Source of the DNA: a virus
Taxonomy: Duplodnaviria; Heunggongvirae; Uroviricota; Caudoviricetes
Length of the DNA stretch: 18,835 nt
Virus record (IMG/VR): IMGVR_UViG_2695420456_000002
Location: 1-18,835 of that record
Reading direction: 5' to 3' (one strand)
The notes beneath the pieces were generated by a model. That model saw only the letters and a program-made list of their open reading frames with translations. It did not search any database and was not told where the DNA came from. The position numbers and the translations under genes were made by a program. This document shows, piece by piece, positions 1 through 14,276 of this stretch (within the stretch, counting starts at the first letter, position 1; each line of letters begins with the position of its first letter).

Positions 1-1
1 G

Positions 2-910
2 GACTTCAGGGGAAAAACGAGTATTTTTAGTCATCCTGTTTACCTCTTTCTCAGGAAGTTTAGTCTCCAGGATTCCCGGGGCGGTTCAATTGGTGTTAGA
101 GCATGTAACTATGGAGACAAAGAAGAAGCTAAACCGATCCCCCTGCTTAGTGGTGTTAATCTGCTGAAATGTGAACATTGCGGTTCCGCTATGGTTAAGG
201 TGAAAGGAACTAACAAACGGCCTAACCAATATCGTTATTCATGCGATGCAATGCGCTCTAGTCGTATTGCATGTGTGCATACAAACTGGAGTTTTCGAGG
301 TGATCAATTAGAGAAAGCTGTATTGCAATTGCTGGCTGATAAAATCTGGGTTGCTGAGGACAAGGCTAATCCGGTTCCGGCGTTGAAAGTACAGGTTGAT
401 GAAATATCACGCAAGATTGATAACCTGATTGCCCTTTCTGCTATGACAGGAGCAACGAAGGAGCTAGCCGATCAGATTACTACCCTCAATAGCGAGCGTG
501 AAACACTCTACAATCAGATTAAGATGGCAGAAGAGGAAATGTATTCTGTGGACTCTCAAGGCTGGGAGAAGCTCGCAGAATTTGATTTAGAAGATGTTTA
601 TAACGAGGATCGCATTAAGGTCCGGTTTAAGATTAAGCAAGCTCTAAAACGGATCGGGTGTAGCAGGATTGACAAATACAAAAACTTGTTTGTATTGGAA
701 TACATTGATGGCAAGACCCAGAGAGTTGTAATAGAAAATTCAAGAGGACCGAGGAAAGGACAAATCTTTGTCGATTTGAAAACTATCAATGATAGGCAGA
801 TTCTGGAGAGTAACGGGCTTGTTCTGCATCCATGTTTAGACATGCTGACAGATAAAGACTGGAAGCCAGAAGAGGAAATACCAGGTCCATTACAGGAATT
901 TGGAATTTAA
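2..910 (+). CDS. large serine recombinase (integrase/invertase family), C-terminal portion; 5' end lies outside the window
   Basis: Frame 2 is open from position 2 to the TAA at 908-910 (the track ORF 191..910 is only its first-ATG subset). Translation contains ...PLLSGVNLLKCEHCGSAMVKVKG...YRYSC...IACVH, a four-Cys zinc-ribbon recombinase motif typical of large serine recombinases, followed by a long charged coiled-coil-like region. Strong terminator immediately downstream. Confidence 0.55.
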   Translation, partial: DFRGKTSIFSHPVYLFLRKFSLQDSRGGSIGVRACNYGDKEEAKPIPLLSGVNLLKCEHCGSAMVKVKGTNKRPNQYRYSCDAMRSSRIACVHTNWSFRGDQLEKAVLQLLADKIWVAEDKANPVPALKVQVDEISRKIDNLIALSAMTGATKELADQITTLNSERETLYNQIKMAEEEMYSVDSQGWEKLAEFDLEDVYNEDRIKVRFKIKQALKRIGCSRIDKYKNLFVLEYIDGKTQRVVIENSRGPRKGQIFVDLKTINDRQILESNGLVLHPCLDMLTDKDWKPEEEIPGPLQEFGI

Positions 911-946
911 GCGGCCTAAATCGACGTATAACGAGCTAAAACAGTT

Positions 947-972
947 AAGGGGTACATTCGTACCCCTTTTTA
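947..972. terminator. bidirectional rho-independent terminator between convergent genes
   Basis: AAGGGGTAC-ATTC-GTACCCCTT hairpin (9-bp stem) followed by TTTTTAATTT on the plus strand; lies between the recombinase stop (910) and the minus-strand nuclease stop (984). Confidence 0.55.
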
Positions 973-983
973 ATTTAATTGCG

Positions 984-1982
984 TTAGAGTGTCTCTAATG
1001 GGCTTAAATCGAGTTCTAAGTCTTCCGGTATTAAATCAGCTAACGGTGCATTCATCCACTGCGATAAATCTCGTTCTATGTCTTCATCACTAATGTAGTT
1101 GTTCAGATTGATTGCGTTGGTATCATCAAAATACATTGGCTTAGATGGGTTGGTGTGGATGTATTCATTGATGAATGATTTAACATCTTTCAGCTTGCTA
1201 ATCGGTAGCGTTTCTGTGAATCCGCTATTCATTACCTTACGTGGGATTTTCTTGCCCTGAATATTCTTTTTAATCCCCATTTCTAAATCACCAGCTTTCC
1301 ATCCAATGTTAAACAAATGTGAGCATTCAAAGGTGATTTTCTCGCTGGTGTGCTTCTGGTGTTCTCTTACCCGTTGCATCGGATCTTTGCGAGTGGTAAT
1401 TCCATATTTGAAAAACTTCTCGCCAACACGAATTAGATAAAAGTGCATAGGGCGCTGTGCAAACTTGTTTCTGATAACCTGTTTTCTACCATTCTGAATT
1501 GATTTAAGTACCCCCCTAACCAAAGGGCATGTTAACCCGCCTTGTCTGCGGTTATTGTGTAAATCACCTTTCTTGTGAATCTTTCCGTGGCACTTACAAC
1601 GAAGAATTAGTTTAGTGTCAACACCCTGATAAGGTTCAGCCAGACCTAACACATCCCACCCTATCGGCTTGTAGAACTTGCGAGCGTTTTCTAAGTGTTC
1701 TTCTTCGGTAAATCTAAACTTCTTCTTAGGCGGTGATACTCTATCTTTGCCAGTAAACTGACCAGTTAGAACATGACTAATACATGGCGTTTTAACCTTT
1801 CCGTTAACTTCTATGCAAACTTTGGTGTTCTGGAATGGTTTCTTTACAGGAAGCACAAAACCACTGTATAACCATCCATGCGCTTGACAAACTTTAATGA
1901 TTCTGGTTTCATATTCGACCGGAGGGGTCGCACGTTTGCTTTTTGCGGTAAATTCGATATCCTTTGCTAAAGTATTATTCAT
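984..1982 (-). CDS. free-standing GIY-YIG-like (T5orf172/MUG113-type) nuclease domain protein, putative homing endonuclease, with Cys/His-rich N-terminal region
   Basis: 332-aa ORF; the central segment FYLIRVGEKFFKYGITTRKDPMQRVREHQ...GFTETL resembles the T5orf172 (GIY-YIG-like) domain signature; N-terminal region carries Cys/His clusters (RCKCHGKIHKKGDLHNN) suggestive of a zinc-binding DNA-recognition module. GAGGA Shine-Dalgarno sequence 8 nt upstream of the ATG. Confidence 0.5.
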   Translation of the reverse strand: MNNTLAKDIEFTAKSKRATPPVEYETRIIKVCQAHGWLYSGFVLPVKKPFQNTKVCIEVNGKVKTPCISHVLTGQFTGKDRVSPPKKKFRFTEEEHLENARKFYKPIGWDVLGLAEPYQGVDTKLILRCKCHGKIHKKGDLHNNRRQGGLTCPLVRGVLKSIQNGRKQVIRNKFAQRPMHFYLIRVGEKFFKYGITTRKDPMQRVREHQKHTSEKITFECSHLFNIGWKAGDLEMGIKKNIQGKKIPRKVMNSGFTETLPISKLKDVKSFINEYIHTNPSKPMYFDDTNAINLNNYISDEDIERDLSQWMNAPLADLIPEDLELDLSPLETL

Positions 1983-2019
1983 AGTAGTGAATCCTCAATA
2001 AAATAATATTCACTACTAT
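1981..2019 (-). promoter_or_regulatory. 12-bp perfect inverted repeat hairpin enclosing the SD and start codon of the nuclease gene
   Basis: ATAGTAGTGAAT (1981-1992) and ATTCACTACTAT (2008-2019) are exact reverse complements. In the minus-strand mRNA the loop contains GAGG and the 3' arm ends in the AU of the AUG. A TATAAATA motif (minus strand, plus coordinates 2017-2024) overlaps the 5' arm. Confidence 0.4.
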
Positions 2020-2028
2020 TTATAAGAA

Positions 2029-2385
2029 TTAATTATTGTAGTTTTGGAAACCAGTAAGATCGCAAAATGTTTCTGTGTCGTGTACCGGAGAACGATGTTC
2101 TGCCTCGTCAGAGAAAATGTTGGCTACCGGAGATTCTGCGTTAACTTCTGGTACTTCTTCAACTGCTGGCTGAACTTCTTCAATGACTGGTTCCACTACC
2201 GGAGTTTCTTCTACTGGTTCCGGTTCTTTCATTGCTTCAACCAGTGACGGATCTGCTTCATCAAATACCACTTTATCTTCTGCGGTATATTTGTCTATAA
2301 TGAAAAAATGGTCAGAAATATAGCTAACGTCGCCAGCATATTCTAACAAAAAAGCGCCCACCAGAGGCGCTTTTGTTTTATCCAT
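2029..2385 (-). CDS. highly acidic Pro/Glu-rich hypothetical protein (about 118 aa), translationally coupled to the endolysin gene
   Basis: ORF open 2029..2415 from a TTG; preferred start is the ATG at 2383-2385, which overlaps the endolysin stop (ATGGATAA, stop TAA at 2378-2380). Product MDKTKAPLVG...EPEPVEETPVVEPVIEEVQPAVEEVPEV... is strongly acidic low-complexity. The antisense ORF 2044..2247 is W/F-rich junk, which supports minus-strand coding. Confidence 0.5.
   Translation of the reverse strand: MDKTKAPLVGAFLLEYAGDVSYISDHFFIIDKYTAEDKVVFDEADPSLVEAMKEPEPVEETPVVEPVIEEVQPAVEEVPEVNAESPVANIFSDEAEHRSPVHDTETFCDLTGFQNYNN
2350..2374 (-). terminator. terminator-like hairpin just after the endolysin stop, inside the 5' end of the acidic ORF
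   Basis: AAAAGCGCC-CACCAGA-GGCGCTTTT (9-bp stem including A:T pairs, 7-nt loop); on the minus strand it is followed by a T-run (TTTTTTG). It could act as a partial terminator or attenuator. Confidence 0.35.
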
Positions 2386-2731
2386 TCCACCGTGATTTTT
2401 TTGATCTGGAATCAATATGCGTAAAGGTTTTATATTTTCCTAAGCCGTATTGAGTAGGATATTTCCCATCAAGATAAGCATGAACAATATCAGGCGAGAC
2501 ACCCTTGATAACAATGTCAGCCGCACGGCCTCGAACATGATAGCTATTGGTTGCGCCGCCAACATTCTTATTATGAGTCGGGCAACGGTTCCCACTGTTA
2601 ATAATTACTGGCTTCCCGAAGTGCTCTCGTACATCCTCAAGAATCACCAGTAATTCAGCGTCGATTGTATCATAATCACATTTTCCGCATTTACATTTAA
2701 ATTCCTTGCGAGAAAAATGCTTACTTAACAT
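2378..2731 (-). CDS. peptidase M15-family (zinc D,D- or L,D-peptidase) cell-wall hydrolase, putative endolysin
   Basis: 117-aa ORF with the spacing ...SGNRCPTHNKNVGGATNSYHVRGRAADI...FTHIDSR characteristic of the M15 peptidase zinc-binding H/D/H arrangement (S-x-H-x-x-G-x-A-x-D ... H-x-D). RBS TAAGGGGGTAAT directly upstream of the ATG at 2729-2731. Confidence 0.6.
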   Translation of the reverse strand: MLSKHFSRKEFKCKCGKCDYDTIDAELLVILEDVREHFGKPVIINSGNRCPTHNKNVGGATNSYHVRGRAADIVIKGVSPDIVHAYLDGKYPTQYGLGKYKTFTHIDSRSKKSRWNG

Positions 2732-2740
2732 ATTACCCCC

Positions 2741-3088
2741 TTAGATCATTTCGAAGATATAACCAATAAAGCGCATACCCTTGATATAATAAGGAGCAGT
2801 GCCTACACACACCGCGCGTGCATCACCCAGACAGTTAAAGCTATAAGGATTAACTACATCGACTTCTTGCCCTACACGAAAACGATATTTAGGACGTTTA
2901 GCCAATGTAGCGACACAAAACACGGTCCCCTTTTCATGGTCACGGATACATTCTTTATATTGTTTATGTTTAACTCTCTTCGCCTCAAAATCATAGGTCA
3001 TTGATTCTGGGCTAATGCCATTAATAAAAATACCGGAAAGCTGATCAACCGGATAAGTAGGAAATTCAGTGAAAATATTTTTAGCCAT
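2741..3088 (-). CDS. hypothetical protein, 115 aa, 4 Cys
   Basis: ORF with ATG start preceded by GGGGGT SD-like motif; no family recognised by eye. Confidence 0.5.
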   Translation of the reverse strand: MAKNIFTEFPTYPVDQLSGIFINGISPESMTYDFEAKRVKHKQYKECIRDHEKGTVFCVATLAKRPKYRFRVGQEVDVVNPYSFNCLGDARAVCVGTAPYYIKGMRFIGYIFEMI

Positions 3089-3091
3089 GTT

Positions 3092-3119
3092 ATACCCCCA
3101 TAAGATTCTATGAGGGTAT
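3092..3119 (-). promoter_or_regulatory. intercistronic hairpin carrying the SD of the 115-aa gene in its 3' arm
   Basis: Minus-strand RNA AUACCCUCAU-AGAAUCUU-AUGGGGGUAU forms a 10-bp stem (one G-U pair); the start codon lies 4 nt after the stem. Confidence 0.3.
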
Positions 3120-3126
3120 TTATTGA

Positions 3127-3810
3127 TTAAACGTATTTCATGCGCGATTTAATGTGCTTATTGATGTTTTCAAGCATCATTGCTTCGTTGCTTTCCCACG
3201 ATCCTAGCGTCGAATAACGAGTAGAAATTTTATCCGACTTAACGGCAACAATTCGCTTACTCTGTTTCTGTATGCGTTTCTCTAAGCGACGTTTTGCCAC
3301 CGCAGATCCATTCCTAGCGCGTTTGGTTCGGGATTTCTTAGGCTTGTACTTCTTCATGATAAAAGTCCCTTCCTGGTTCTCTACCTTGATGAAGTTGCCA
3401 TTTTCGATGTTACGCATCATCTTACCGCCTTTAATGGCCTTAATGTTCCCGTGGGAGTCTAAGACCTTACCGTTGGCGATTGGAACTAGCTTATTGATTT
3501 TGCCCCCATCGAAATAGTGTTTCAGATAGTCATCCTGACTGCCGATCTTCTTGTCCTTATCCCTTGCGCCCTTGATGAAGATTTGGTGTCTCGTCCCTGA
3601 TCGGTTCTTGTAGTTGGTATTACCTACAGCTTGCTGAGTCCAGCGAGTAGGTCTATCAACATTCTTGTTAATCTTCTTCTGGAGTGCTCTGGAAGCAAAG
3701 ATCGCCCCTTCCCCTAGTGCCCTTTCGAATGTATCGGTTGCCTTTTCAGACCATTGCCGTAACGCTTTCTTAGTCCTTAGAGCGTTTCGTTTATTGGTAC
3801 TGGTTGCCAT
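3127..3810 (-). CDS. very basic (Lys/Arg-rich) hypothetical protein, 227 aa
   Basis: ORF with ATG at 3808-3810 preceded by TAGGGGGCTAAC; many K/R clusters (KKYKPKKSRTKRARNG, KRRLEKRIQKQSKR). Function not recognisable from sequence. Confidence 0.55.
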   Translation of the reverse strand: MATSTNKRNALRTKKALRQWSEKATDTFERALGEGAIFASRALQKKINKNVDRPTRWTQQAVGNTNYKNRSGTRHQIFIKGARDKDKKIGSQDDYLKHYFDGGKINKLVPIANGKVLDSHGNIKAIKGGKMMRNIENGNFIKVENQEGTFIMKKYKPKKSRTKRARNGSAVAKRRLEKRIQKQSKRIVAVKSDKISTRYSTLGSWESNEAMMLENINKHIKSRMKYV

Positions 3811-3811
3811 G

Positions 3812-3982
3812 TTAGCCCCCTAATAACGAAAAGACCCCCGCCAGTGTCCTTAGCAATTGTTCATCCACGGTCATAGCCGGGAGTTCAAGCCCAAAGGACG
3901 TTAGCAGAGGTCTAATAGCTACGTTATAAGTGAGGGCGACAATCAAGAGATAACCAAAATATTTCTTAAGTTTATTCTTCAT
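3812..3982 (-). CDS. small membrane protein, 56 aa (below the ORF-track length cutoff)
   Basis: Hand-translated: MKNKLKKYFGYLLIVALTYNVAIRPLLTSFGLELPAMTVDEQLLRTLAGVFSLLGG. ATG at 3980-3982 preceded by AAGGGGTGAATAT; stop TAA at 3812-3814, 1 nt before the next ATG. Basic N-terminus then a hydrophobic helix; no Cys, so not a lipoprotein. Confidence 0.4.
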   Translation of the reverse strand: MKNKLKKYFGYLLIVALTYNVAIRPLLTSFGLELPAMTVDEQLLRTLAGVFSLLGG

Positions 3983-4000
3983 ATATTCACCCCTTTATTA

Positions 4001-4279
4001 TTATTTTTGTTTGAGTATGTCGAGAACTTGGTCAAATTTGGCGTCCATCGCAACCACTTTCTTCTCTATACCGTGTAGTGTTTGTTCCATTTGGTAAACA
4101 CGTTCAGCAATCTGAGTATGGTTATTCTGCATCGTCTCAAACTTCTGGTTTAACAATGCGTCGCTGGATTCCAATTTCGACAATCTATTTTCAGTTGCTA
4201 ATTGATTTCGGTGAAGTCTCCAAAGACCACCACAAATTAAGGCGATAACACCGATACCGCCATATATAATTTCAGTCAT
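4001..4279 (-). CDS. membrane-anchored coiled-coil protein, 92 aa (N-terminal transmembrane helix plus coiled coil); candidate holin, i-spanin-like or superinfection-exclusion protein
   Basis: MTEIIYGGIGVIALICGGLW hydrophobic segment followed by RLHRNQ and a heptad-rich charged region. Lies immediately downstream of the J-like gene and its terminator. No canonical lipobox. Confidence 0.55.
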   Translation of the reverse strand: MTEIIYGGIGVIALICGGLWRLHRNQLATENRLSKLESSDALLNQKFETMQNNHTQIAERVYQMEQTLHGIEKKVVAMDAKFDQVLDILKQK

Positions 4280-4328
4280 TACGCCCCCGATATTTTTATA
4301 TAGTTTAATGGCAAAATTATTTAGATAA

Positions 4329-4370
4329 AAATAATCCCGCCTAACTCAAAAGAATTAAGCGGGATTAATT
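4329..4370 (-). terminator. hairpin terminator candidate after the J-like gene
   Basis: TAATCCCGC (4332-4340) and GCGGGATTA (4359-4367) are inverted repeats, extendable to about 12 bp, with an 18-nt loop; U-rich tract follows on the minus strand. The long loop makes it atypical. Confidence 0.3.
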
Positions 4371-4385
4371 ATTAAAATTAAATTT

Positions 4386-7300
4386 TTAAGAAACAGTAAT
4401 ACCCGTAGTGGCTTTTTTAGTTACCATTACAGTTAAATCACTGATCCATGTGCTAGGCGTCCAGTTGTTGATTGCGCTTGATTGCACTTCAAAGGTCAAG
4501 GTCACAGCACCTTTACCCGCTGGCATATCAATAACACCTGAGTAAAGACCAGTATTACCGCCATACGCCCTATTATACAACTCTGACCCATTCTTACGAA
4601 CAATCAGGCGACATGTGTCGTAATAGGTATTATTGTTCGACCCTTCACGCGCTCGCAATCCACCAAAACTAATTGCCGGAATAACGATTTGACGATCGAA
4701 CTTGTGATCATCTTCAACGCGAACAGTGACCGTACCCTGTGGATAGCCAGCATAACCATTATCAACGTTAACATCACGGTGCGGGAACTTACGACCAATC
4801 ACCTTAACGAAATCACCCTTAACCTGAGTAGCTTCAAGCATACCCTTAATAACACAGCTAGAGTTAATCGTGACGTTGTTCAGAGTACCAGAATCAGCCG
4901 TGATATTACCTTTAACGGTAGCGTTCATGAACGTAGCGGACCCGCTCTTGTTGATATGCCATCCGGTAGATCCGTTCCAGTTGGAAGACTGGATATAGTT
5001 ACCAATTTTGGCATTATCAATAGCACCGTTTACGATCTTGGCGTTAGTGATTGCCCCGTCCTGAATCTTCGCGCTGTTAATTGCAGCATTGCCGATCTTA
5101 GCGGTAGTAATTGCCGCATCATTAATCTGGGCTGTACCAATTGCAGCATTACGAATCATCGCATTATCGAGATAAACCTTGTTACCTTCGATACCAAACG
5201 GGCAAACATCGGTCCCATTCTGCGGAGCTACAGCAATTTTATCAGCCGTAAAGATGATTTTAGTCGGTTGTGCCGGATCATTGCTTGCGCTCATGTGAAT
5301 ACCAGCCACGCGACCATCTGCATTAACTGCCAGGTTATATTTGCTGTTAATGGTTCCCTTCAAAGCATCGATTTTTACATCTGCTTCCTGATTCACACCA
5401 GCAATCTTGCCATCCATTTCTACCCGAACTTGATCAATCTTAGTTGCGCTTGCTGCCTCACTGGTAGCAATAGCTTGTTTCAGGGTAGTAGCAGATGCAC
5501 TAACTTCTTTGGTGATATCGCCTTTCAGTTCAGCTTTAACCTGATCAATCTTAGTTGAACTTGCCTTATCACCAGAAGCAATCAGACTCTTGAGAGTATC
5601 GGCTGAGGCTTGAACTGTTTTACCCGTTTCAGTAGTGATTTGCTTATGCATTGCATCAATTTTAGCATCGGCATTAGCGCCAGCTTGCTTAATAGCATCC
5701 GCGATAGTTTCATCTAATCGATCTTGTAAACCGATCAGGTCTTCCAGTGCTTCTTTGTCCTGATCGTCCCAGCTAATGGTAGATTTCATTTGCATGAAAT
5801 ACGGTTCAGACCAAACAGCATCATCCATACCGAAAATATCGTAATGTGCCGCGCGAAGATAATAATCCCCGTCCGTCAAGTCGAAAGATGTATGGCTAAC
5901 ACTATTCGTGCTTACCGCCCTTGCATCGGAGAAAGTGCTATCGGTTGCAAATTGTACAATCGTCCCAGCATAGTCCTGTTCCAGAACATCACCGTTCCAG
6001 CTAACGAAAGCAGCATTAAAACCACCACGCGCACTAAAACCTTTAATACCTTTATGCTGTGGGTTAATAGCCACTAAACGCGCTGGGGCGCTCTCTGAGT
6101 TGTTATAGCCCTTAGCCGATACTTCTACCGTAAGTTGTCGCGAAAGGCCGTTAAACTGGTTCATATCAAGTGTATAAGTCCATGATTCAGGATCGCGGGT
6201 ACGGTACTGAATAGACTTACCAGCCTTGTTAGTCACCTTGATAATGTATGCTTCAAACAGGTCACTAAACTTGTTAGTTTCACCGTTGATCATCACATCT
6301 AATTGTTGCTGATTTTCCCATTCGATAATCAGATCATTACCTTCGAAAGTTCCTGGCGTGCTACCCTGATTTTTGATTCGAATAACCGGAGTCGGTAATT
6401 CATAGGTAACAGTAGGATTCTGGTTAATCAGTTCTACCCAATCAGATCTCGCGATGATACCGAAAGCACAAACTCGGTAATCATAAGAACGATCTTTTGC
6501 CAGTGCACTGACACTGAAAATTTGCTGTGAAGTCTGTCCCAGCTTAATCCAGTTAGGCGATCCACTAACACGGTAATCAATCTGGAAGCCGTAGCGGTTA
6601 AAATCTTCCGGCGCATCCCATGTTAAAGTAACGTTCTTACCATAGATTGTTTCACCAGTTGCCTTAATTCTGAAATTAGTAGGCTTCTGTACTGTCATTG
6701 AATCCGGTAAACCACTTGGTCGGTTATCTGGGTTAGCCGCATAGTTCAGGTCAGTATAAACCTGAGAATTATATTCTGTGGCGGTGATCGTCATCATCCC
6801 AGCAATACCAGAATCAATCGAGCGGTCAATTGCAGTAATACGCCAAAGTGAATTATTCAGTTTTAATTCATCATAGGTTACGCTGATAACATCCCACACC
6901 TCGGCAGTGAATGCGTCAGTAGTCATAAAGCTGATAACCTGAGTGATACGAGATTTATTTCGTTCAATGCTCGCAAGTTTATCAATCTGGGCTTTAGACT
7001 TAACAAAACGATATTCGATATCCTTAGCGATAATTCGACCATCTTGACGAATAGTAGCATCGTTTTCAGCATCAGCCGGATAACGTAGCATTTGCTCTGA
7101 ATAGTCAATTGATGGTTCTTGATACATCGCGTTAATGGTATTGAAATAACCGTTAGTGCCACCTGTTTTCAGTGATACCTTACCCATCATGATATTGTCT
7201 TCATTGAATGTATGCTTAACAATATCAGGAGCATCCAGTTTCAGGGTAATTCTTCCGAAGGATTCGAACATCACCCCGCCGAAAGTCTGCATAAGGCTAG

Positions 7301-8165
7301 TCAAGTTCTCTTTAAAGCTGGCGTTCGGATCACATGCACCGTTCGAATGTAGGTCCATCTGACGTACTTGCTTACGTACTTTCAGGAATGAATCAACGTT
7401 AATGTTTTCAATTGGTACGGATAAGCCATATTTTTCATTTGTTAGGTAGTGGAAAATCTGGTCCACGCCGTTAGTGCTAGCCTCAATAGCATTGGTTTCA
7501 AGGTTACGGATTTTTAAGCCCATAACATCGACCGCTACCTGGCTATTTGGTTGGAGAATATCAACACCAGCAGCAAGAGATTTATCATCACGGCGTAACA
7601 CAATACACATGGTTGCAATACCATTGCCTTTGTAGTTGTCGTTCCAGTCTGACCCTAAGTGACGTTTTGCCAGTGACAAAGCGGTGTTAGGATTCTTACC
7701 CGTGCGGAACTCAACCTCTAAAACTTTCCGGTATTCTTCTTTAATGTTGCCTTTGTCCAGTACACCATCACGGATCGTCATGTTCTTACCAACAAGAACA
7801 TTTTTGTTATCGATAAACAGTGCTTTGTAATGGTCGATTTCACCCTCGGCAATTGCGAAGATTTGCACTAACTTATTGTTTTCTTGCTTAGAAATTGCTT
7901 TGTAAACGCAGATTGCACCTGTGCGGGTAGTACCGAAAAGAACGGGTAATACTGTCTTAGGATCGTTTGATGTTCCTAGTGTCACCGCATTATCTGGGCT
8001 TTGTACTTTCGGTGTTTTTGGTGCGCCTACAGTGGAAGCGATCAAGGTCATTGCACCAGCAGCCATACCGATAGCGACTGCGGTCATAACAGAAAATGTT
8101 GCAGCAGCAGCCATCCCAGCAGACGCACCAGCAATAACCGCGCCTACCAATATTTCAAATCCCAT
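4386..8165 (-). CDS. central tail fibre / host specificity protein (lambda J-like tip attachment protein), 1259 aa
   Basis: Size and position after M/L/K-like genes; fibronectin-III-like segment ([11 protein letters not shown]...YDYRVCAFG); coiled-coil region; tandem xAAIxxAKI repeats; distinct C-terminal domain. N-terminal 50 aa are Gly/Ala-rich and hydrophobic. The ATG overlaps the upstream stop (TAATG). Confidence 0.7.
   Translation of the reverse strand: [1259 protein letters not shown]
5000..5150. repeat. tandem roughly 24-bp coding repeats (8-aa units xAAIxxAKI) inside the J-like gene
   Basis: Protein [51 protein letters not shown]; at DNA level repeated AATTGCAGCATT/AATTGCCGCATC units. 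Confidence 0.5.
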
Positions 8166-8584
8166 TATTCACCCCCGAATCTATAAACTTGTTCATAGTC
8201 AATGTCTGAAACAGGAATGGTCATCCAGATACCATCTTCTTCAACGAGGCCATAACCGGAATAATGAGGAACTACGGAATAATAATTACGGTTTCCTAAT
8301 TTGTGGGCTGTGACCAGTAAGTCGCCGTCCTGTAAATCATCAGTGACTAATTTGAAATGTTTCTTAATTGGTTGAAGGATGTTTGAATACCCGCTTAATT
8401 CTTTGCAGATTTTCAAGCCTTCTTCTTTAGTTGAATATTTTTTATAAAGAGAATTATATAGGTCAGTACCAGCGAGAATATCGATGATCTTACATGCAAT
8501 GAGATTGCAATCATTCTCACCCTGAACGAACTCCTGACCTATTAAAGAATTGATGTAATCGGTGATAAGCCTAGTTTTTAGCAT
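8165..8584 (-). CDS. minor tail protein, NlpC/P60-like (lambda gpK-like), about 139 aa
   Basis: The track ORF extends to 8740 but would overlap the upstream gene by 110 nt; the internal ATG at 8582-8584 is preceded by GGAGG (8593-8597) at good spacing. Contains ENDC...H...H spacing consistent with a Cys/His hydrolase. Stop overlaps the J start. Confidence 0.45.
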   Translation of the reverse strand: MLKTRLITDYINSLIGQEFVQGENDCNLIACKIIDILAGTDLYNSLYKKYSTKEEGLKICKELSGYSNILQPIKKHFKLVTDDLQDGDLLVTAHKLGNRNYYSVVPHYSGYGLVEEDGIWMTIPVSDIDYEQVYRFGGE

Positions 8585-8630
8585 GTTGAATACCTCCATG
8601 CTGTTATTTACTAGGCTTAGGGAGAAGGGA

Positions 8631-9284
8631 TTATTTCTTAGAGCTAAACCACTTCGACTCGCTTTGCCACTTCCCGGCACGGGAGAAGAATAGATCGTTC
8701 TCGTTTCCAACATAGGATCGGTGGATACCATCGGAAGCATGACTACGAGCGTTTTTATCTAGAACTTCCCAGATACTATTAAGCTGAAATTCTGATTCGT
8801 TTTTACACTCTTCATCTTCATGTTCGATGTTAATCCCGATGGAATCGACTACCCCACGGAAAACAGGGTAAGTAGTTTCAACCTTGCCCGTGTTAGGGTT
8901 CAGGAAAACCATCTCGATTTTCACATCAGATTTATCGAATTGCTTGTTACGAATCAAGGTAATGTATTCTTCGCGGACGTTAGAAACAGTTACGTTGATC
9001 CCGTTGTTGTTGATCTCCTTCTCTTCGGTATTCGATGAGATTTGAAGAAAATCACCCGTTGCGAGATACGTAAATCCGTTATAGTCCAAATCGAAGTACC
9101 CGTCTGTAAGCCGTAAAACGTCCCCTGACGCGGTTACTACTTCGATAATGTGGAACATCGATCCAGTGGAAAAAAGCTGCGGTAGAGTCAATCTAGACAC
9201 ATTCTGACCTGTCTGGTCGTTGTATACCTCGATGAAGTCCAGATTAGTGCATAGTTTGCTGAATGATTCCTGAATAGTTGCCAT
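8631..9284 (-). CDS. minor tail protein (lambda gpL-like position), 217 aa
   Basis: ORF between the M-like and K-like genes; start ATG overlaps the upstream stop (TAATG). Assignment is by synteny and size only. Confidence 0.45.
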   Translation of the reverse strand: MATIQESFSKLCTNLDFIEVYNDQTGQNVSRLTLPQLFSTGSMFHIIEVVTASGDVLRLTDGYFDLDYNGFTYLATGDFLQISSNTEEKEINNNGINVTVSNVREEYITLIRNKQFDKSDVKIEMVFLNPNTGKVETTYPVFRGVVDSIGINIEHEDEECKNESEFQLNSIWEVLDKNARSHASDGIHRSYVGNENDLFFSRAGKWQSESKWFSSKK

Positions 9285-9844
9285 TATACATTCTCCACTA
9301 ATTCAAATTTCATCTTGCCGATCTGGGCGATCTTCCAATCGATGTTTTCAGTTTTGAGAACAAATTCACCTTCTACGTTCTGATACTTGATCACCTCACC
9401 CGCCAGGACGTTCTGACGCAAGTTAGGGAAGAGTTTCATTTCACCACCTGATTTCACATCTTCGGTGATCGTGTAGATTTTCTTGTGGTTCTCAAACTGG
9501 ATGATAGTTCCCGCTTTCAGTGTTCCGGTGAAGTTGGAGATTCTCACCTTACGCCCACCGCGAGCAGTACCAGCAGCAGCCGTTACCATCTGGCGTACAT
9601 CACCTGTATATTTTGAAAAGTAAGACAGTGGTACATTGAAAGGACGACCAAAAAGGTGACGTGCTACAAATTCTTTTACTTCGTTAATATCCTGAGCCAT
9701 GAAATTCGCGGTAAATTCTGCTTCGTAAAAATGGATGCCAGTAAAGCGACGCTGGAACTTACCGGATATAGATTGCGCCTTGAAGAAAGGCTGTTTTGAT
9801 TTAAGAGTAAAATCTGTGATTTTAATATTCTTGGATTTGAACAT
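9284..9844 (-). CDS. distal/minor tail protein (gpM-like position), about 186 aa
   Basis: First gene after the tape measure. The track ORF begins at a GTG (9880) but that would place the intercistronic hairpin inside the CDS; the ATG at 9842-9844 is preceded by TGGGGGCTTTTTCT, so the shorter start is preferred. Confidence 0.45.
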   Translation of the reverse strand: MFKSKNIKITDFTLKSKQPFFKAQSISGKFQRRFTGIHFYEAEFTANFMAQDINEVKEFVARHLFGRPFNVPLSYFSKYTGDVRQMVTAAAGTARGGRKVRISNFTGTLKAGTIIQFENHKKIYTITEDVKSGGEMKLFPNLRQNVLAGEVIKYQNVEGEFVLKTENIDWKIAQIGKMKFELVENV

Positions 9845-9846
9845 AG

Positions 9847-9892
9847 AAAAAGCCCCCATAGTTTTATGATTATTTATCACTATGGGGCTTTT
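9847..9892 (-). terminator. hairpin terminator/attenuator between the tape measure and M-like gene; the 3' arm doubles as SD
   Basis: AAAAGCCCCCATAG ... CTATGGGGCTTTT inverted repeat (about 10-bp stem, 18-nt loop) followed by a T-run on the minus strand. Confidence 0.4.
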
Positions 9893-9894
9893 AA

Positions 9895-12324
9895 TTACAT
9901 CTTACGGCGCTGTGCGTCTTCTACCGCCTGAGCAACTAACTTAGCGTGACGTTTGATAGCATCCATGACCATCTTGTCTGAGCTATTAACGTTGCCGTTA
10001 ATGTTCAAAGGCGCATTAACTTCAATCGGTTGAGAGTTGCCACCGCCTGATTTTTGAGCAGAAAGGAAGTCTTTCAAATCACCGTTGGTACGCTGATCAA
10101 CTACTCGTTCACCCTTATCAAGCAACCACGTACCTTCTTTGGGGATACTGTCAATACCATCATGTGACATTCCTGTTAAATTTGTTGATTTAATGTTGGC
10201 AATATTTCCCATGTTCTGAGAAACAGCCAATGCAGCAGCAGCGATTTTTTGACCTGTGGTTACGTTGGTCGGATCGTTCCATGCATCGGTAGCAGCCGTC
10301 CACATGTTCACCGTCGCTTGTCCGATAGAGAATGCTTTATGAGCATTGAAAGCCATCTGCATAGCTTTAGTGTTTTCCTGCCCGAAAAGAGTCATTGCAG
10401 CAGCAAAACCGCCATACATATCATCGGCTATTGACTGGCGAGCATCAGCATATTTCTTTTCAATTGCAGCCATCCGTTTTTGATGGTTTTCATTGAGTTT
10501 TTCTAATGCTTCCATCCGTTTAGCCGGATCATTAATACCGTCAATCTTGAGTTTATCGGTCTTATAATCTTGTTCAGCATCCGATTTCTCTTTATCGATT
10601 GCATTAAATTTAGCAAACGGATTATTTGAGTCTTGATAATCATAACCACTAGTTAATTGATTGGTTTTATAACCATCCATTCCCTGTAAAGAATTTTCAA
10701 TCTGAGAATAGTTTTGCTCGGTATCGTTCACACGACGCATATATTCTTCGTAGGAGATAGCTTTACCATCAAGTAACCGTTTATGGCTTTCTAGCTCGTT
10801 GTCCCTGATTTGTTGCAATTGTGTTAAAGCATTCAGAGCATCAATCGGATCAGCACCCAACATCATTTTATAAACGTTTTCAGTATTCTGATCGATTAGC
10901 GCCTGGCGTTTCGCGGCTGCGTCTTCCTGAGAGATTAAGCCCAGAGCTAACGCGTCGTTCACATCTTTTAAGCTGTTTTGCAACTGGCTATTTTGAGAAG
11001 TGATAGACGCTGCAACTTGCCCTTGCAATTTAACATCAAGTGCATTCAGTCGCTTGATTGCATCCTCGCGTGCTTTCTGTGCTTTTTCTGCGGCTTCCTT
11101 AGCCTTTTTAGCTGCCTCTTCCGCTTTCTTTTTGGCTTCTTCCTCGGCTTTCTTCTCGTTGCCAGACTTACCCAATGAAGCTGGTCGAGTTGGTGTAGTC
11201 GGGATAGTCAAATCACGGTTAGGATCTGCCTTGCGGGTAAGATGTTCCCCGTTATCGACAACAATCAGAGAGCCATTTTTCTTATAAGAATCACCAAAAC
11301 GTTTCTTAAATCCTTCAACATCAAAGCCAGCAGTACGAGGATCGACACCAGCACCACGGATCGCGGCCTTTTCCCAATCTGCCAGATTATTCCAACGCTT
11401 TTCTTTATTGTACTTGTCAATAATCTTTTGAGCGTCTTTATGGTTGGCGTTAAGAATACCACCAGTTGCGGTCTTACCTTCTTTATTCAGACGGTCTAAT
11501 GCCCTGAATAGAGAACTCTTTTCCCAATCAATATTAAACCATTCGAATAACCAGTTTAAACTATCAACCAAAGGACCAGTAATGGTCATACCGACACCTT
11601 TCAGGTTATTTTCCAGCTTATTGATATTTTGAGAAAATTTATCATATTTTTTAGCGTTTTCTTCGGTGACGTTAACAGATTGATTCTGAATAGCGATCAT
11701 CGCCTCTTGAGCACTATTATATTTCTCAAGCTGGCTGGTCATATGGCTTGAATCACTGGCTAAAGATTCCATCATGAACTTGATTTCAGCCATTGATTTT
11801 CCGGCTTTCTTCATGTCATAGAACACTTGGATCGCCGCTTTCATACCACCTTGCGGATCAGTCATGAAGTGAGCATAGTTTTCTAACTTAAGGCCAACCG
11901 ATTCTAAGTCATCAGCAATACCACCACCGTTAGCCCATGCATCACCCATCTTATCTAAGGTGTCTTTGTTGATATCACCGAATTTTTCAACTGTTAGGCC
12001 AGTACCAGAAAATTCCTTTTCCAGTCTTTGAAGGGATTCAATCGAGAGTCCGGTCGCCTTAGATACTTCTGAATATTGTTTAACGTATTCCGCGCCAGCT
12101 TTAGCGGCTGCAACCACTGCGGTCGCAACTAAGCCGATACCACCAGCAGCCAAACCAGCAGAGCCAGCGATCCCACGAAGAGATCCAGTCAGACCAGATA
12201 AGCCACCACCAAAATCAATACCACTTGCCTTTTCAGACAAACTATCGAGAAGGTCGGCGGCTTCATTGGTACTTCTCCTTAGACCTTTATTATCCCCTTC
12301 TATTGTTACTATATGTTTTGTCAT
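9895..12324 (-). CDS. tail tape measure protein, 809 aa
   Basis: Long ORF after the chaperone pair; Gly/Ala-rich hydrophobic N-terminal segment, extended coiled-coil region (KKAEEEAKKKAEEAAKKAKEAAEKAQKAREDAIKRL), and hydrophobic/Gly-rich C-terminal region. RBS TTGGGGTAATTT-ATG. Confidence 0.8.
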   Translation of the reverse strand: MTKHIVTIEGDNKGLRRSTNEAADLLDSLSEKASGIDFGGGLSGLTGSLRGIAGSAGLAAGGIGLVATAVVAAAKAGAEYVKQYSEVSKATGLSIESLQRLEKEFSGTGLTVEKFGDINKDTLDKMGDAWANGGGIADDLESVGLKLENYAHFMTDPQGGMKAAIQVFYDMKKAGKSMAEIKFMMESLASDSSHMTSQLEKYNSAQEAMIAIQNQSVNVTEENAKKYDKFSQNINKLENNLKGVGMTITGPLVDSLNWLFEWFNIDWEKSSLFRALDRLNKEGKTATGGILNANHKDAQKIIDKYNKEKRWNNLADWEKAAIRGAGVDPRTAGFDVEGFKKRFGDSYKKNGSLIVVDNGEHLTRKADPNRDLTIPTTPTRPASLGKSGNEKKAEEEAKKKAEEAAKKAKEAAEKAQKAREDAIKRLNALDVKLQGQVAASITSQNSQLQNSLKDVNDALALGLISQEDAAAKRQALIDQNTENVYKMMLGADPIDALNALTQLQQIRDNELESHKRLLDGKAISYEEYMRRVNDTEQNYSQIENSLQGMDGYKTNQLTSGYDYQDSNNPFAKFNAIDKEKSDAEQDYKTDKLKIDGINDPAKRMEALEKLNENHQKRMAAIEKKYADARQSIADDMYGGFAAAMTLFGQENTKAMQMAFNAHKAFSIGQATVNMWTAATDAWNDPTNVTTGQKIAAAALAVSQNMGNIANIKSTNLTGMSHDGIDSIPKEGTWLLDKGERVVDQRTNGDLKDFLSAQKSGGGNSQPIEVNAPLNINGNVNSSDKMVMDAIKRHAKLVAQAVEDAQRRKM

Positions 12325-12327
12325 AAA

Positions 12328-12702
12328 TTACCCCAATTGACCGCTCTTGAGCTTTTGTAATAATGAAGCGTCGAAATAACTATCAACCAAAGCAGAGTTA
12401 CGTTCTTCCTCTTTCTTACGAGCAATTTCTTTTATTTCTTCTTGCGTTTTAAATTGCTTGTCGTCCTTAATCATTCGGAATTGGTTAACATTGATTTTAT
12501 TCAACCATTCACGAGTCATGTTAGGAGATGTAACGTGCATGTAATACATCGACTGTGCATGTCGCGCATCTTGATATAGGGGGCTTTGTGGTTCAAGATA
12601 TGTATCGAATATATGCAACGCCCAAAATAGCGTAATTGGCATATTATCCATCTCATCTTTACTCAAGCCCCGACGCATCATTTGCCGAAAATAAAAATTC
12701 AA
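12328..12702 (-). CDS. tail assembly chaperone-like protein (T-like position), 124 aa
   Basis: Starts at a TTG 8 nt after the upstream stop with no nearby SD; lies between the G-like ORF and the tape measure. Confidence 0.4.
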   Translation of the reverse strand: MNFYFRQMMRRGLSKDEMDNMPITLFWALHIFDTYLEPQSPLYQDARHAQSMYYMHVTSPNMTREWLNKINVNQFRMIKDDKQFKTQEEIKEIARKKEEERNSALVDSYFDASLLQKLKSGQLG

Positions 12703-12710
12703 GAGCGGGT

Positions 12711-13019
12711 TTACTTTACCTCGTTTTCAATTACCGCCGCATCTTTCATCAATGATGCTTGAGCAACTAAGCCGATTAATTCGCTGCGGACGCTAGTATA
12801 CAGTGCCTTAACTTGTTCAATAGATTCAAATACTGGCTTACCGTCTTCATCTTCAATACAACGAAGAATAGAGCGTTCATCGCGGTCTTTTTTATCAGTA
12901 TTGAAAACATGTTCATTAAATTCTTGCACCGACATAGGGCGAGCATAGAACGTAAATCCGCCGAGGGTTAAAGATTCACGTTTCGGAGAAAGAGCTTTCA
13001 GCATTTCATTCAGATTCAT
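12711..13019 (-). CDS. tail assembly chaperone (gpG-like position), 102 aa
   Basis: Small acidic ORF immediately upstream of the tape measure region; GAGGA SD upstream of the ATG. Confidence 0.5.
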   Translation of the reverse strand: MNLNEMLKALSPKRESLTLGGFTFYARPMSVQEFNEHVFNTDKKDRDERSILRCIEDEDGKPVFESIEQVKALYTSVRSELIGLVAQASLMKDAAVIENEVK

Positions 13020-13064
13020 TATTGTTTCCTCATTAATAGTGATTACGCTGTATTTATTTAGAAT

Positions 13065-13571
13065 TTAAGAGATTTTCAAAGTCTGCTTAGTGCCAGTCTT
13101 CTTAATATTTGTTAGGAAAGCAGCCGGAGGATTGCTTAACCAATAGTAATGAAAACCACTTTGCATACTGTTATAAGGAACAGTGACAGCAGCACCACCC
13201 AAATTAACGGTTATATTCCCCGCTCTACCGTTCTGGAGATATACAGCCATAGTAGGAGTACCGCCATTGAATTGACCAACGATAACGCCAACCAGACGCC
13301 CTACGCCCACGTTTTCGGGGTTCTCCATAGATCCTTTGCTTTGCATACCGGAAACAGGATAGTTTGAAGCAGTTACACCCCAGTTATTACCCAATGAAGT
13401 AGACCACGATGCAGTAGCTACAACCGTATCCATACCACGACCAGCCATTGCCGACATATTACGCGGAGCCGGAACTTTTAAAGCTGTTAATGCTTCTTTC
13501 ATCCATCGCTTACCCGTCACCGATACAGCAGATGACCCGATCCAGCCAGGAACTTTAACGACATTTGCCAT
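13065..13571 (-). CDS. hypothetical tail protein, 168 aa (Gly/Ser/Thr-rich, beta-rich composition; possible tail tube or decoration protein)
   Basis: ORF between the putative tube gene and the chaperones; TTGGAGTAATCAAA-ATG start context. Confidence 0.5.
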   Translation of the reverse strand: MANVVKVPGWIGSSAVSVTGKRWMKEALTALKVPAPRNMSAMAGRGMDTVVATASWSTSLGNNWGVTASNYPVSGMQSKGSMENPENVGVGRLVGVIVGQFNGGTPTMAVYLQNGRAGNITVNLGGAAVTVPYNSMQSGFHYYWLSNPPAAFLTNIKKTGTKQTLKIS

Positions 13572-13585
13572 TTTGATTACTCCAA

Positions 13586-13615
13586 TAAAAAAGCCCCACC
13601 ATTAAGGCAGGGCTT
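13586..13615 (-). terminator. rho-independent terminator after the extended tube ORF
   Basis: Minus-strand RNA AAGCCCUGCC-UUAAU-GGUGGGGCUU (10-bp stem with two G-U pairs) followed by UUUUUAUU; sits just downstream of the TAA at 13620-13622. Confidence 0.5.
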
Positions 13616-13619
13616 AAAA

Positions 13620-13745
13620 TTAATTCTTAGCCTTGCGGCCTCGTTTTGCTGTGGCTTTCGCCGTAACTTCTTCTACTTCTGGAATCACCACCGCTTCATG
13701 TTCCGGCAGTGGTTCCGGTTCTGGTAAAGGAAGTTCTTCGTTAGT
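13620..13745 (-). other. in-frame 41-codon open extension downstream of the TGA stop of the putative tail tube gene (candidate readthrough region)
   Basis: After TGA (13746-13748) the same frame reads TNEELPLPEPEPLPEHEAVVIPEVEEVTAKATAKRGRKAKN then TAA; no start codon with an SD within it. Confidence 0.3.
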
Positions 13746-14219: not shown

Positions 14220-14250
14220 AGAATTACCCCTTAATTAAAATTGTTTATAA

Positions 14251-14269: not shown

Positions 14270-14276
14270 ACTTTTA

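Follow-up and report, generated by a model that had tools for sequence, protein, structure and literature searches.

The protein p227, encoded in a four-gene cassette next to the endolysin gene of a prophage family, appears from homology to belong, as a distant relative, to the lambda gpZ / Neck1 tail-completion superfamily. Its neighbours p92 and p56 are most likely a holin and its partner for a signal-less endolysin, as they are the only conserved candidates for this role. The cassette was studied in a window of 18,835 nucleotides (IMG/VR record IMGVR_UViG_2695420456_000002, positions 1 to 18,835). The explanation that we prefer is tentative and, taken as a whole, falls a little short of an even chance: p227 would be a tail completion protein (TCP), p115 its virion partner, p56 and p92 would provide the holin function, and a spanin would be absent.

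The four ORFs that a preliminary description of this DNA had noted between a J-like gene and the endolysin gene were all confirmed on the minus strand. The constant neighbour upstream is the J-like tail-tip / host-specificity gene (4386..8165, minus strand, 1259 aa), followed on the same strand by a terminator-like hairpin made of a 16-bp stem and a T-run (4332..4367). The minus-strand genes encoding p92 (4001..4279, 92 aa), p56 (3812..3982, 56 aa, a small basic membrane protein), p227 (3127..3810, 227 aa) and p115 (2741..3088, 115 aa) come next. The Peptidase_M15_3 endolysin gene (2378..2731, minus strand) is the final gene of the unit in the window's lineage, and an intrinsic-terminator-like hairpin, to which no strand was assigned (2350..2374), lies right after its stop codon and closes the transcription unit. 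A GGGGG-type ribosome-binding site was found 5-8 nt 5' of the start codon of each cassette ORF (4/4), and Ka/Ks values against orthologues ranged from 0.07 to 0.21. All four ORFs are under purifying selection; this includes the 56-aa ORF found by hand, which proved to be a real gene. PGAP labels all four products as hypothetical, in keeping with the earlier view that the cassette is uncharacterised. As part of the same tentative explanation, the four ORFs and the endolysin gene would form one short, late, hairpin-bracketed transcription unit, genetically linked to the J-like gene.

The order of the cassette is kept in E. coli, Salmonella and Providencia prophages, one IMG/VR contig, five metagenomic contigs and GenBank record PQ671644. 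Twelve loci carry the complete cassette: the window, L001, L002, L003, L030, L032, L037 and L044-L048; the contigs of L046 and L048 measure 190 kb and 35 kb, respectively. In the related prophage of E. coli VTB96775v (NZ_CP178634.1, 2,889,480-2,924,273), the recombinase is intact. J-like genes of relatives have Phage_Tail_Tip and Ig_GpJ_C domains; that of the window is 43% identical to the L046 gene, and its identity to the gene in PQ671644 is 40.6% (89% of the length covered). An equivalent of the hairpin between the J-like and p92 genes was present in L001, L002, L003, L030, L032 and L037 and was weaker in L044, L046 and L048, and an equivalent of the hairpin following the endolysin gene was found in L002, L003, L030, L032 and L037. 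In L044, L046 and L048, the cassette lies inside the tail module with no adjoining endolysin gene, and a hairpin comes after the p115-like gene. The window contained one exact match to a T4-late-type promoter (TATAAATA), which is no excess over chance. When the region was compared with 50,697 phage records by megablast, a T4-type inh fragment alone was returned, and searching phages by tblastn produced no significant match to p227, p92 or p56. PQ671644 ('DCP80') was considered as a lytic relative and dropped because the record looks chimeric, with a siphovirus module joined to a T4-like genome.

The description of p227 as very basic was borne out (pI 10.7, net charge +36). The window protein matched phrog_1924 at E 1.2e-3, and its orthologues matched the same family at E 1.4e-8, 1e-5 and 3e-6. 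A search with the p227-family profile returned 293 relatives. P0037 and P0099 matched this profile at E 1.6e-17 and 1.8e-12, and both passed the gathering score of the Pfam family PF06763 (Minor_tail_Z). P0037 matched phrog_1924 at E 1.5e-50 and phrog_27 ('tail completion or Neck1') at E 7e-11; lambda gpZ matched the same two families at E 2e-4 and 3e-69, respectively. Direct comparison of the p227-family profile with the single lambda gpZ sequence using hhalign gave a weak alignment (24% probability, N-terminal 32 residues only), so the assignment of p227 rests on the transitive PHROG and Pfam evidence. The window protein had no direct match in Pfam at E <= 0.1, neither the family profile searched against PDB sequences nor the p227 model searched against the PDB with Foldseek gave a match, and GTDB genome contigs scanned with the p227 alignment yielded nothing. 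The AF2 model of p227 (pLDDT 78) contains a long N-terminal helix (residues 7-50), a beta insertion (strands within residues 62-153) and a C-terminal helix (residues 205-223). This predicted architecture matches that described for the TCPs 80alpha gp51 and gpZ, in which a long bent N-terminal helix is followed by a loop or beta insertion and a long C-terminal helix (PMC11661146). BFVD fold matches of p227 were enriched for HK97-gp10, virion-morphogenesis and neck proteins.

The likeness of p227 to the known TCPs (lambda gpZ, SPP1 gp16.1, HK97 gp10 and 80alpha gp51) lies in remote, consistent profile homology and in the predicted arrangement of helices and beta insertion (PMC11661146), and it extends to size and charge: the p227 family spans 183-239 aa and gpZ has 192 aa, both being very basic. 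As with gpZ and gpU, a small partner gene lies immediately 3' of the p227 gene. Unlike TCP genes, which occupy a position between head-closure and tube genes, the p227 gene follows the J-like gene, away from the canonical placement between the head genes and the terminator/tube genes. The prophage interval from the FII-like gene to the tube gene contained no second gpZ-like gene. The p227 branch, phrog_1924, is a sister of the branch that holds canonical gpZ (phrog_27), and p227 also differs from TCPs by its coupling to an upstream membrane-protein gene and by a Lys/Arg-rich insertion (residues about 154-186) that is absent from the orthologues of 183-188 aa. Lambdoid prophages have their phrog_1924 genes flanked by lysis genes on one side and by the small terminase gene (terS) on the other; with this location and that of the p227 gene after J, a function unlike that of canonical gpZ is therefore possible. 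By analogy with 80alpha gp51, SPP1 gp16.1 and lambda gpZ, one or a few copies of p227 would be joined to the finished tail. The protein may lie in the proximal tail lumen, where its strongly basic surface would link the terminus of the tape measure protein to the DNA end that enters the tail, and it is predicted to be required for productive head-tail joining and DNA delivery.

The gene encoding p115 lies directly 3' of the gpZ-like gene in all complete cassette loci (12/12), a terminator-like placement. In L044, L046 and L048, the genes that come after it are orthologues of the window's chaperone and tape-measure genes and not an endolysin gene, which gives the canonical Z-U-(V)-G-T-H order; the p227/p115 pair in these loci is ahead of the chaperone and tape-measure genes and hence nearer the canonical order, yet still after J. 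The slot of p115 in these three loci is that of the tail terminator, making p115 itself a candidate for this role. The predicted fold of p115 is mostly beta, with PilZ barrels as the best fold matches and a low model confidence. Its position and this weak fold signal suggest a small beta-barrel acting as the virion partner of p227 in a tail-terminator or neck slot. When set against the tail terminators lambda gpU, T5 p142 and SPP1 gp17, p115 displayed no sequence or fold similarity to the gpU type. Comparisons by hhalign did not relate p115 to lambda gpU, lambda FII or the 157-aa tube protein of the prophage, and the p115-family profile had no match among PDB sequences. The canonical slot after the FII-like gene is held by a separate 140-aa gene without assignment. 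An exhaustive HMM search for p115 found 9 cluster representatives only, one of which was spurious (the repeat protein P0143), and a related-locus search with P0139 found no viral locus. p115 contains cysteines, as noted in the preliminary description, four in all; because their number varies between 0 and 4 among orthologues, they were rejected as a functional feature.

The window endolysin was identified by matches to Pfam Peptidase_M15_3 (E 1e-27) and phrog_894 (E 2e-45), and no transmembrane (TM), signal or SAR segment was found in it. A T4-lysozyme-type enzyme takes its place in L037, L045 and L047 and is found one gene further on in L001. In eight loci, the unit ends with an endolysin gene of one of these two unrelated types (M15 or GH24), and in PQ671644 the endolysin gene is one position further downstream; neither type carries an export signal. 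Since the M15 endolysin is signal-less, it needs a holin to reach the wall. PGAP annotation of the prophage names no holin or spanin anywhere. Scanning the cassette of 7 loci in every frame and with all start codons revealed no conserved lipobox ORF, which upholds the earlier statement that the cassette has no lipobox cysteine and no canonical i-spanin/o-spanin pair. The lone lipobox match was a non-conserved ORF with a TTG start, nested in the 3'-terminal part of the L002 J gene, and no credible lipobox ORF turned up across the whole window or in those parts of two complete prophage copies that the scan covered.

In agreement with its initial description as an N-terminal TM and coiled-coil protein, p92 begins with a hydrophobic, Gly-rich segment (residues 1-20, hydropathy 2.0) and continues as a helical, hydrophilic tail. 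Its family matches were weak (phrog_12015 at E 4e-5, plus coiled-coil noise in Pfam), its orthologues in L044 and L046-L048 were recovered with a local HMM at E 2e-11 to 4e-6, and its Ka/Ks was 0.20. The hand-found p56 is a membrane protein, as proposed, with a single marginal TM segment (residues 12-28, hydropathy 1.6) and a net charge of +3 (range +2 to +4); it has an N-terminal KNKLKK motif, an invariant Asn20 within the TM segment and invariant Pro25 and Pro35. Local HMM matches to p56 were found in L044-L048 (E 7e-11 to 2e-8), always abutting the gpZ-like gene, and its Ka/Ks ranged from 0.11 to 0.21. In the window, the p56 stop codon lies 1 nt ahead of the gpZ-like start; p56 is translationally coupled to this tail gene and not to the endolysin gene. 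Together with two of its orthologues, p56 matched phrog_2024, a family of unknown function, at E 4e-4 to 5e-3, and the orthologues of L003 and L030 had no match.

Both proteins are small, as holins are, and contain at least one TM segment each, marginal in the case of p56. They are encoded two genes away from the endolysin gene in eight loci, inside one terminator-bracketed unit, and are the only conserved small TM proteins of the late region. No significant match to a holin family was found for p92 or p56 in Pfam, PHROGs or NCBIfam; the sole holin traces were phrog_1296 for the L037 orthologue (E 0.024) and a Listeria holin by tblastn (E 7). The p56 C-terminus (...AGVFSLLGG) is without the charged tail typical of holins, and that of p92 is long, hydrophilic and coiled-coil. 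We infer that p56 and p92 would be small oligomerising inner-membrane proteins, p56 (N-in) acting as the holin and p92, with its TM segment and coiled coil, as a holin partner, regulator or timer. Other membrane ORFs of the prophage are a conserved 81-aa TM ORF beside the recombinase gene and a variable one at the other prophage end. In L040, the latter has 94 aa and 3 TM segments, and a far-end ORF of this type could be the real holin.

Known lysis systems offer partial parallels. In the late cluster of phage P2 (X-Y-K-lysA-lysB-lysC-R-S), membrane proteins, endolysin and tail-completion genes are likewise mixed: the holin and lysis genes share the late block with the tail completion genes and are contiguous with them (Y-K-lysA-lysB-lysC-R-S), lysC physically overlapping R (PMC3091744). 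The P2 lysis genes all come before R and S, whereas the endolysin gene follows the tail genes here; P2 also has canonical Rz/Rz1-type spanins, none of which was found in this cassette family, and there is no sequence similarity to P2. The lambda S-R-Rz/Rz1 system resembles the unit in its small membrane-protein genes and in its signal-less endolysin, which implies a large-hole holin. The unit differs from it by having no holin-family match, no lipobox o-spanin in any frame and two non-lysis genes between p92/p56 and the endolysin gene. Small proteins without family assignment are essential for lysis in other phages, namely the phiKT disruptin gp28, LambdaSo Lcc6 and the Mu releasin gp25. The Mu releasin is a TM and coiled-coil protein, an architecture that p92 resembles. 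It has been described as a membrane-localised DUF2730 protein (bioRxiv 10.1101/2024.01.23.576932); unlike it, the cassette proteins have no DUF2730 match in Pfam, and as the M15 endolysin has no SAR domain, a releasin is not needed. Lcc6 (65 aa, an N-terminal TM segment and a cytoplasmic tail) establishes that a small unclassified TM protein can be essential for lysis (bioRxiv 10.1101/2024.01.23.576932).

A virion-associated or superinfection-exclusion role for p92 and p56 is possible, and both were weighed against the holin function. We consider it unlikely that the two are membrane-active partners of the TCP in the virion or its assembly. As small hydrophobic proteins, they would either travel inside the tail lumen and leave it together with the tape measure, helping to route DNA across the envelope, or serve as membrane-anchored assembly factors; the whole four-gene set would then be a tail module, with the endolysin gene no more than an addition in some lineages. 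In every lineage, the p56 stop codon overlaps with or directly adjoins the gpZ-like start, the four-gene set is conserved as widely as the gpZ-like gene, and in L044, L046 and L048 it sits between J and the chaperone/tape-measure genes with the endolysin gene absent, all as expected of a tail module. This reading also draws on SPP1 gp16.1, a TCP needed for routing DNA into the cytoplasm (PMC11099176), and on the T5 TCP p143, located at the tail tip beside the hub (PMC11784142). However, the positive residues that follow the p92 TM segment suggest an ordinary inner-membrane protein, and the prophage would be left without a conserved holin near its signal-less endolysin. No siphovirus is known to have separate small TM proteins inside the tail lumen. 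That p92 and/or p56 are inner-membrane superinfection-exclusion or immunity proteins, blocking DNA entry by phages that share the tail tip or tape measure, is rather improbable. Their genes are always immediately 3' of the J-like gene, where they would stay because their specificity must match J, and linkage to genes for receptor binding or the tail is a trait of exclusion genes such as T5 llp, phi80/N15 cor and HK97 gp15. Morons are often preceded by a terminator-like hairpin, as p92 and p56 are; a promoter scan upstream of these genes, however, found no sigma-70-type promoter. Both genes are kept where the gpZ-like protein is 38-46% identical and the J-like protein (L046) about 43% identical, and conservation across such divergent lineages is the behaviour of core and not of accessory genes. 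Exclusion is further opposed by the translational coupling of p56 to a structural gene and by the PADLOC defence models, none of which matched a cassette protein of the window at E <= 0.1; the defence role first suggested for these proteins was accordingly not supported.

It is very unlikely that a non-canonical two-component spanin is made up of p92 as the i-spanin and p56 as a lipobox-less partner targeted to the outer membrane. The TM segment and coiled coil of p92 correspond to i-spanin architecture, the scan of the window and of parts of two complete prophage copies found no lipoprotein spanin, and the 153-aa PQ671644 orthologue, and that orthologue only, weakly matched phrog_739 ('Rz-like spanin', E 1e-3), although for a coiled coil this match is at noise level. 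The basic residues right after the p92 TM segment (RLHRN; in PQ671644, GKGIGAIKGK) suggest that the coiled coil would be cytoplasmic. At its N-terminus, p56 carries a cluster of basic residues; it has no cleavable lipobox and no clear signal-peptidase I site, and the prophage would still be without a holin. The proposal that the cationic p227 or the Cys-containing p115 acts as a new factor for lysis, outer-membrane disruption, host takeover or defence is largely refuted, and we give it hardly any credence. It was prompted by the net charge of +36, the transcription unit shared with the endolysin, a prophage family without spanin and the disruptin precedent, phiKT gp28 (bioRxiv 10.1101/515445). 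By homology and predicted fold, p227 is a member of the gpZ/Neck1 family, in which a strong positive charge is a normal trait; the charge of p227 is ordinary and therefore provides no evidence for a cationic outer-membrane disruptor. The preliminary description had named homology to known structural proteins as the finding that would count against its proposal, and for p227 this homology was found. The disruptin gp28 is far smaller, a 56-aa hydrophilic peptide with a net charge of +7 and no TM segment, and disruptins are delimited as amphipathic, hydrophilic proteins of <80 aa with a net charge of at least +4 and no TM segment (bioRxiv 10.1101/515445). By comparison, p56 (+2 to +4) has a hydrophobic segment and p227 is a folded protein of 227 aa. 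Tail genes come after the p227/p115 pair in three lineages, the p115 cysteines are not conserved and neither protein had a PADLOC match. The undescribed function expected for the cassette is withdrawn for p227, a member of the gpZ class, and for p115, its constant downstream partner, which occupies a tail-gene slot in some relatives; lysis and exclusion are left to p92 and p56.

With the most striking member of the cassette recognised as an ordinary virion protein, the main reason for expecting a new cationic lysis or defence factor is gone. A gpZ-type gene now stands, displaced, at the end of the tail operon, and in every case its translation is coupled to that of a small membrane protein; p115, with its narrow family, may be an unrecognised tail terminator. 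The prophage family has a cytoplasmic endolysin, yet no recognisable holin or spanin. Under the preferred explanation, p92 and p56 could add a holin family, or reveal how spanin-less siphoviruses breach the outer membrane. A bolder and doubtful proposal is that they found an undescribed class of phage membrane proteins, either a holin/co-holin pair that, in a family of enterobacterial siphovirus prophages without spanin, would also replace this missing function or membrane-active proteins that are made in a fixed ratio with the TCP and enter the host envelope with it and the tape measure. If so, tail completion and envelope breaching would be joined in one conserved gene block. The prophage family is carried by 55 of 5426 complete E. 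coli genomes (~1%), as well as by Salmonella and Providencia genomes.

Re-examination of the interval between the J-like gene (4386-8165) and the Peptidase_M15_3 endolysin gene (2378-2731), both on the minus strand, confirmed the positions of the four ORFs carried there on the same strand and the accuracy of their initial description: p92 (92 aa, 4001-4279), p56 (56 aa, 3812-3982), p227 (227 aa, 3127-3810) and p115 (115 aa, 2741-3088). These are real genes. A GGGGG-type Shine-Dalgarno sequence precedes each of them, and pairwise Ka/Ks values against orthologues ranged from 0.07 to 0.21, the 56-aa ORF included. Their order is kept in Salmonella (L002, L032), Providencia (L030), a divergent E. 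coli lineage (L003, L004), the IMG/VR contig L037, five contigs from metagenomes (L044-L048) and that portion of GenBank PQ671644 (L001) that resembles a siphovirus, where two of the four, the p92-like gene (L001 12710-13171) and the p56-like gene (L001 13649-13822), are unannotated. The PQ671644 record ('Escherichia phage DCP80'; L050/L001), classified in the Straboviridae, looks chimeric: its first ~26 kb form a siphovirus module related to the window prophage, from terminase to endolysin, and the remainder contains genes of T4 type, namely motA, ndd and two copies of rIIA in inverted orientation.

Profile searches with p227 alone gave a weak match to phrog_1924 ('minor tail protein', E 1e-3), a sister branch of phrog_27; shorter orthologues matched it at E 1.4e-8, 1e-5 and 3e-6, and lambda gpZ matched phrog_27 at 3e-69 and phrog_1924 at 2e-4. 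A p227-family profile retrieved 293 relatives of about 190-220 aa, two of which (P0037 and P0099) exceeded the Pfam gathering score for PF06763 (Minor_tail_Z); P0037 also matched phrog_27 ('tail completion or Neck1 protein', 7e-11). The AlphaFold model of p227 (39-sequence alignment, pLDDT 78) placed a beta-rich insertion between a 44-residue N-terminal helix and a C-terminal helix. 80alpha gp51 has been described with this architecture, and gpZ, gp16.1 and HK97 gp10 are predicted to share it (PMC11661146). Its fold matches among predicted viral structures included HK97-gp10, 'virion morphogenesis', 'type I neck' and tail proteins; a Foldseek search against the PDB returned no match, and direct comparison with the single lambda gpZ sequence was weak. 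Taken alone, the assignment of p227 as a gpZ-type tail completion protein is highly probable, and its positive charge is therefore in line with known proteins of this type. Disruption of the outer membrane by this cationic protein, as put forward in the preliminary description, is extremely improbable. By analogy with 80alpha and SPP1 (PMC11661146, PMC11099176, PMC11784142), p227 would be a low-copy protein located within the proximal tail, linking the tape measure to the DNA end.

The location of the p227 gene after J is unusual for a gpZ-like gene. Other carriers of the phrog_1924 gpZ-like gene were examined in L038/L043, L039, L041, L042 and L033. In lambdoid prophages of Citrobacter, Mangrovibacter and Orbus and in a metagenomic contig, it lies outside the tail module, with the lysis cassette on one side and the small terminase gene on the other; in L039 a holin gene is directly upstream. 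For roseophage R4C, no annotated gene follows it in the linear record.

The p115 family is very narrow, with 9 cluster representatives (1 of them spurious) among 1.84 billion proteins. The protein had no match in any profile library searched, and its cysteines are not conserved among orthologues. Its gene is found directly 3' of the gpZ-like gene in every complete cassette locus. In the metagenomic contigs L044, L046 and L048, the genes directly after p115 are orthologues of both tail chaperones of the window (49-52% and 38-41% identical) and of its tape measure, which places p115 in the U/V slot of the canonical Z-U-(V)-G-T-H order. The cassette had been read as possible new lysis, membrane-disrupting, host-takeover or defence genes; the genes are indeed uncharacterised and devoid of a spanin pair, but this reading fails on its central point, since p227, the cationic protein, can be recognised as structural and its partner p115 is probably structural too. 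New here are the variant arrangement of the genes and two or three families of small proteins without assigned function.

A strong hairpin followed by a T-run was found after J in the window and six relatives, and a second one after the endolysin gene in the window and five relatives; in L044, L046 and L048 the second hairpin follows p115 instead. Bracketed by these hairpins, the block is therefore a discrete late unit. An endonuclease VII gene is found between p92 and p56 in different lineages. Endonuclease VII, tail completion protein and endolysin are generally all of low abundance and required when the cycle ends, and this content is compatible with the presence of a holin in the unit without proving it. 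Motifs of the type (C/T)ATAAATA or TATAAAAA, resembling the T4 late promoter TATAAATA, were seen after the terminator hairpins, upstream of p92 (about 4290-4310), and before the chaperone genes (L046 5880-5895, L048 5893-5905, L044 2225-2237). The exact T4-late-type motif was not enriched within the window. Relatives also carry UvsW, UvsY and endonuclease VII genes.

The p92 protein combines a Gly-rich N-terminal transmembrane segment (TM) with a 70-residue coiled coil, and basic residues immediately following the TM point to a cytoplasmic location of the coiled coil. The p56 protein carries a basic cluster at its N-terminus and a single TM that contains an invariant Asn; two prolines are likewise invariant. 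The p56 stop codon abuts or overlaps the gpZ-like start codon in all lineages. Along with two orthologues, p56 matched phrog_2024 (unknown function) at E 4e-4 to 5e-3, and the orthologues of L003 and L030 yielded no match. The endolysins at the end of the unit are of two types, M15 in the window and T4-lysozyme type in L037, L045, L047 and PQ671644; neither carries an export signal, so both need a holin. In the late region, p92 and p56 are the only conserved small TM proteins; elsewhere, a conserved 81-aa TM ORF is found next to the recombinase gene and a variable membrane ORF at the other prophage end. P2 provides an example of lysis and tail-completion genes within a single block (PMC3091744), and LambdaSo Lcc6 indicates that an unclassified small TM protein can be an essential lysis factor (bioRxiv 10.1101/2024.01.23.576932). 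Collectively, the signal-less endolysins, the sole conserved late TM proteins and these two precedents argue for a holin-type role of p92/p56. We tentatively favour a composite explanation, in which the cassette encodes a tail completion protein, its virion partner and holin-type membrane proteins.

Several observations speak against the holin component. Neither membrane protein has holin homology, p56 is devoid of a charged C-terminal tail and is coupled to the tail gene rather than to the endolysin gene, and in L044, L046 and L048 the set belongs to the tail module and has no endolysin gene in its vicinity. Neither protein matched a described family; matches of p92 were coiled-coil noise apart from those of two orthologues, one Rz-like (E 1e-3) and the other PspB-like (E 3.5e-3). 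Among the alternatives for p92 and p56, an association with the virion or its assembly is unlikely, a function in superinfection exclusion is slightly less likely still, and a spanin lacking a lipobox is very unlikely. A scan of every start codon in every frame identified no conserved lipobox ORF in the cassette across seven loci, the single match being a non-conserved TTG-start ORF within the 3' end of the L002 J gene. The entire window and two complete prophage copies, over the portions scanned, likewise lacked a credible candidate. The absence of a canonical spanin pair, first noted for the cassette, thus extends to the prophage.

The actual holin could instead be encoded at the opposite prophage end, by a 94-aa three-TM protein with a short charged C-terminus (L040 7974-8258), which may be class-I-holin-like or a moron. 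At this variable locus, beside a 184-aa HTH protein, the small membrane proteins differ by strain and had no PHROG match; another strain has unannotated 56-aa and 57-aa ORFs (L029 37626-37796, 37850-38023).

The window is part of a ~35-37 kb chromosomal E. coli prophage. Among 5426 complete E. coli genomes, 55 carry the cassette region (1900-4450), and in none of them does it lie outside the chromosome. Insertion sites differ among closely related prophages (L028/L029 versus L035/L040): hicB in strain PRO_A-1412-6M-A and ycdX in strain VTB96775v; the Salmonella copy (L002) adjoins the ycdY/ycdZ/csgG region. The late genes, on the minus strand, follow a lambda-like order: terminase gpA, W-like joining protein, portal, protease-capsid fusion, FII-like gene (96 aa), 140-aa gene, 277-aa gene, T4 gp37-like fibre, tube protein, gp38-like adhesin, two chaperones, tape measure, Dit, hub, DUF6950 protein and J. 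After J come the four cassette ORFs, the Peptidase_M15_3 endolysin, a 128-aa ORF, a 332-aa endonuclease-like gene and a large serine recombinase.

Within 13065-18696, the siphovirus tail module contains an insertion of a 1204-aa T4 gp37-like distal long-tail-fibre gene (phrog_1699, E 2e-148) and a 168-aa gp38-like adhesin gene (phrog_1121, E 2e-34). Two tube-protein paralogues flank these genes: the 157-aa tube protein, and a 240-aa ORF that is tube-like at its N-terminus but fibre-like at its C-terminus. The 128-aa ORF (2029-2415, minus strand) matched neither PHROG nor Pfam; positions 2046-2286 are 78-82% identical in nucleotides to inh, the prohead protease inhibitor/minor head protein gene of RB49-like T4-type phages. 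In this siphovirus prophage, the stretch looks like a myovirus head-gene fragment that lies immediately past the terminator of the endolysin gene.

Positions 1-88 belong to the terminal part of a multicopy IS3-family element, with 100% identical copies and with matches among 3553 of the 5426 E. coli genomes; the element disrupts the large serine recombinase gene (89-910, plus strand). A sister prophage has an intact 559-aa recombinase, to which homology begins only at about base 89, so this copy can probably no longer excise. The adjacent 332-aa gene (984-1982, minus strand) matches the C-terminal part of the endonuclease family phrog_681 (E 3e-20). Two E. coli strains (H40, H45) have the cassette region divided by an additional GIY-YIG nuclease gene, and homing-type nucleases thus appear to move around the recombinase end of the prophage.
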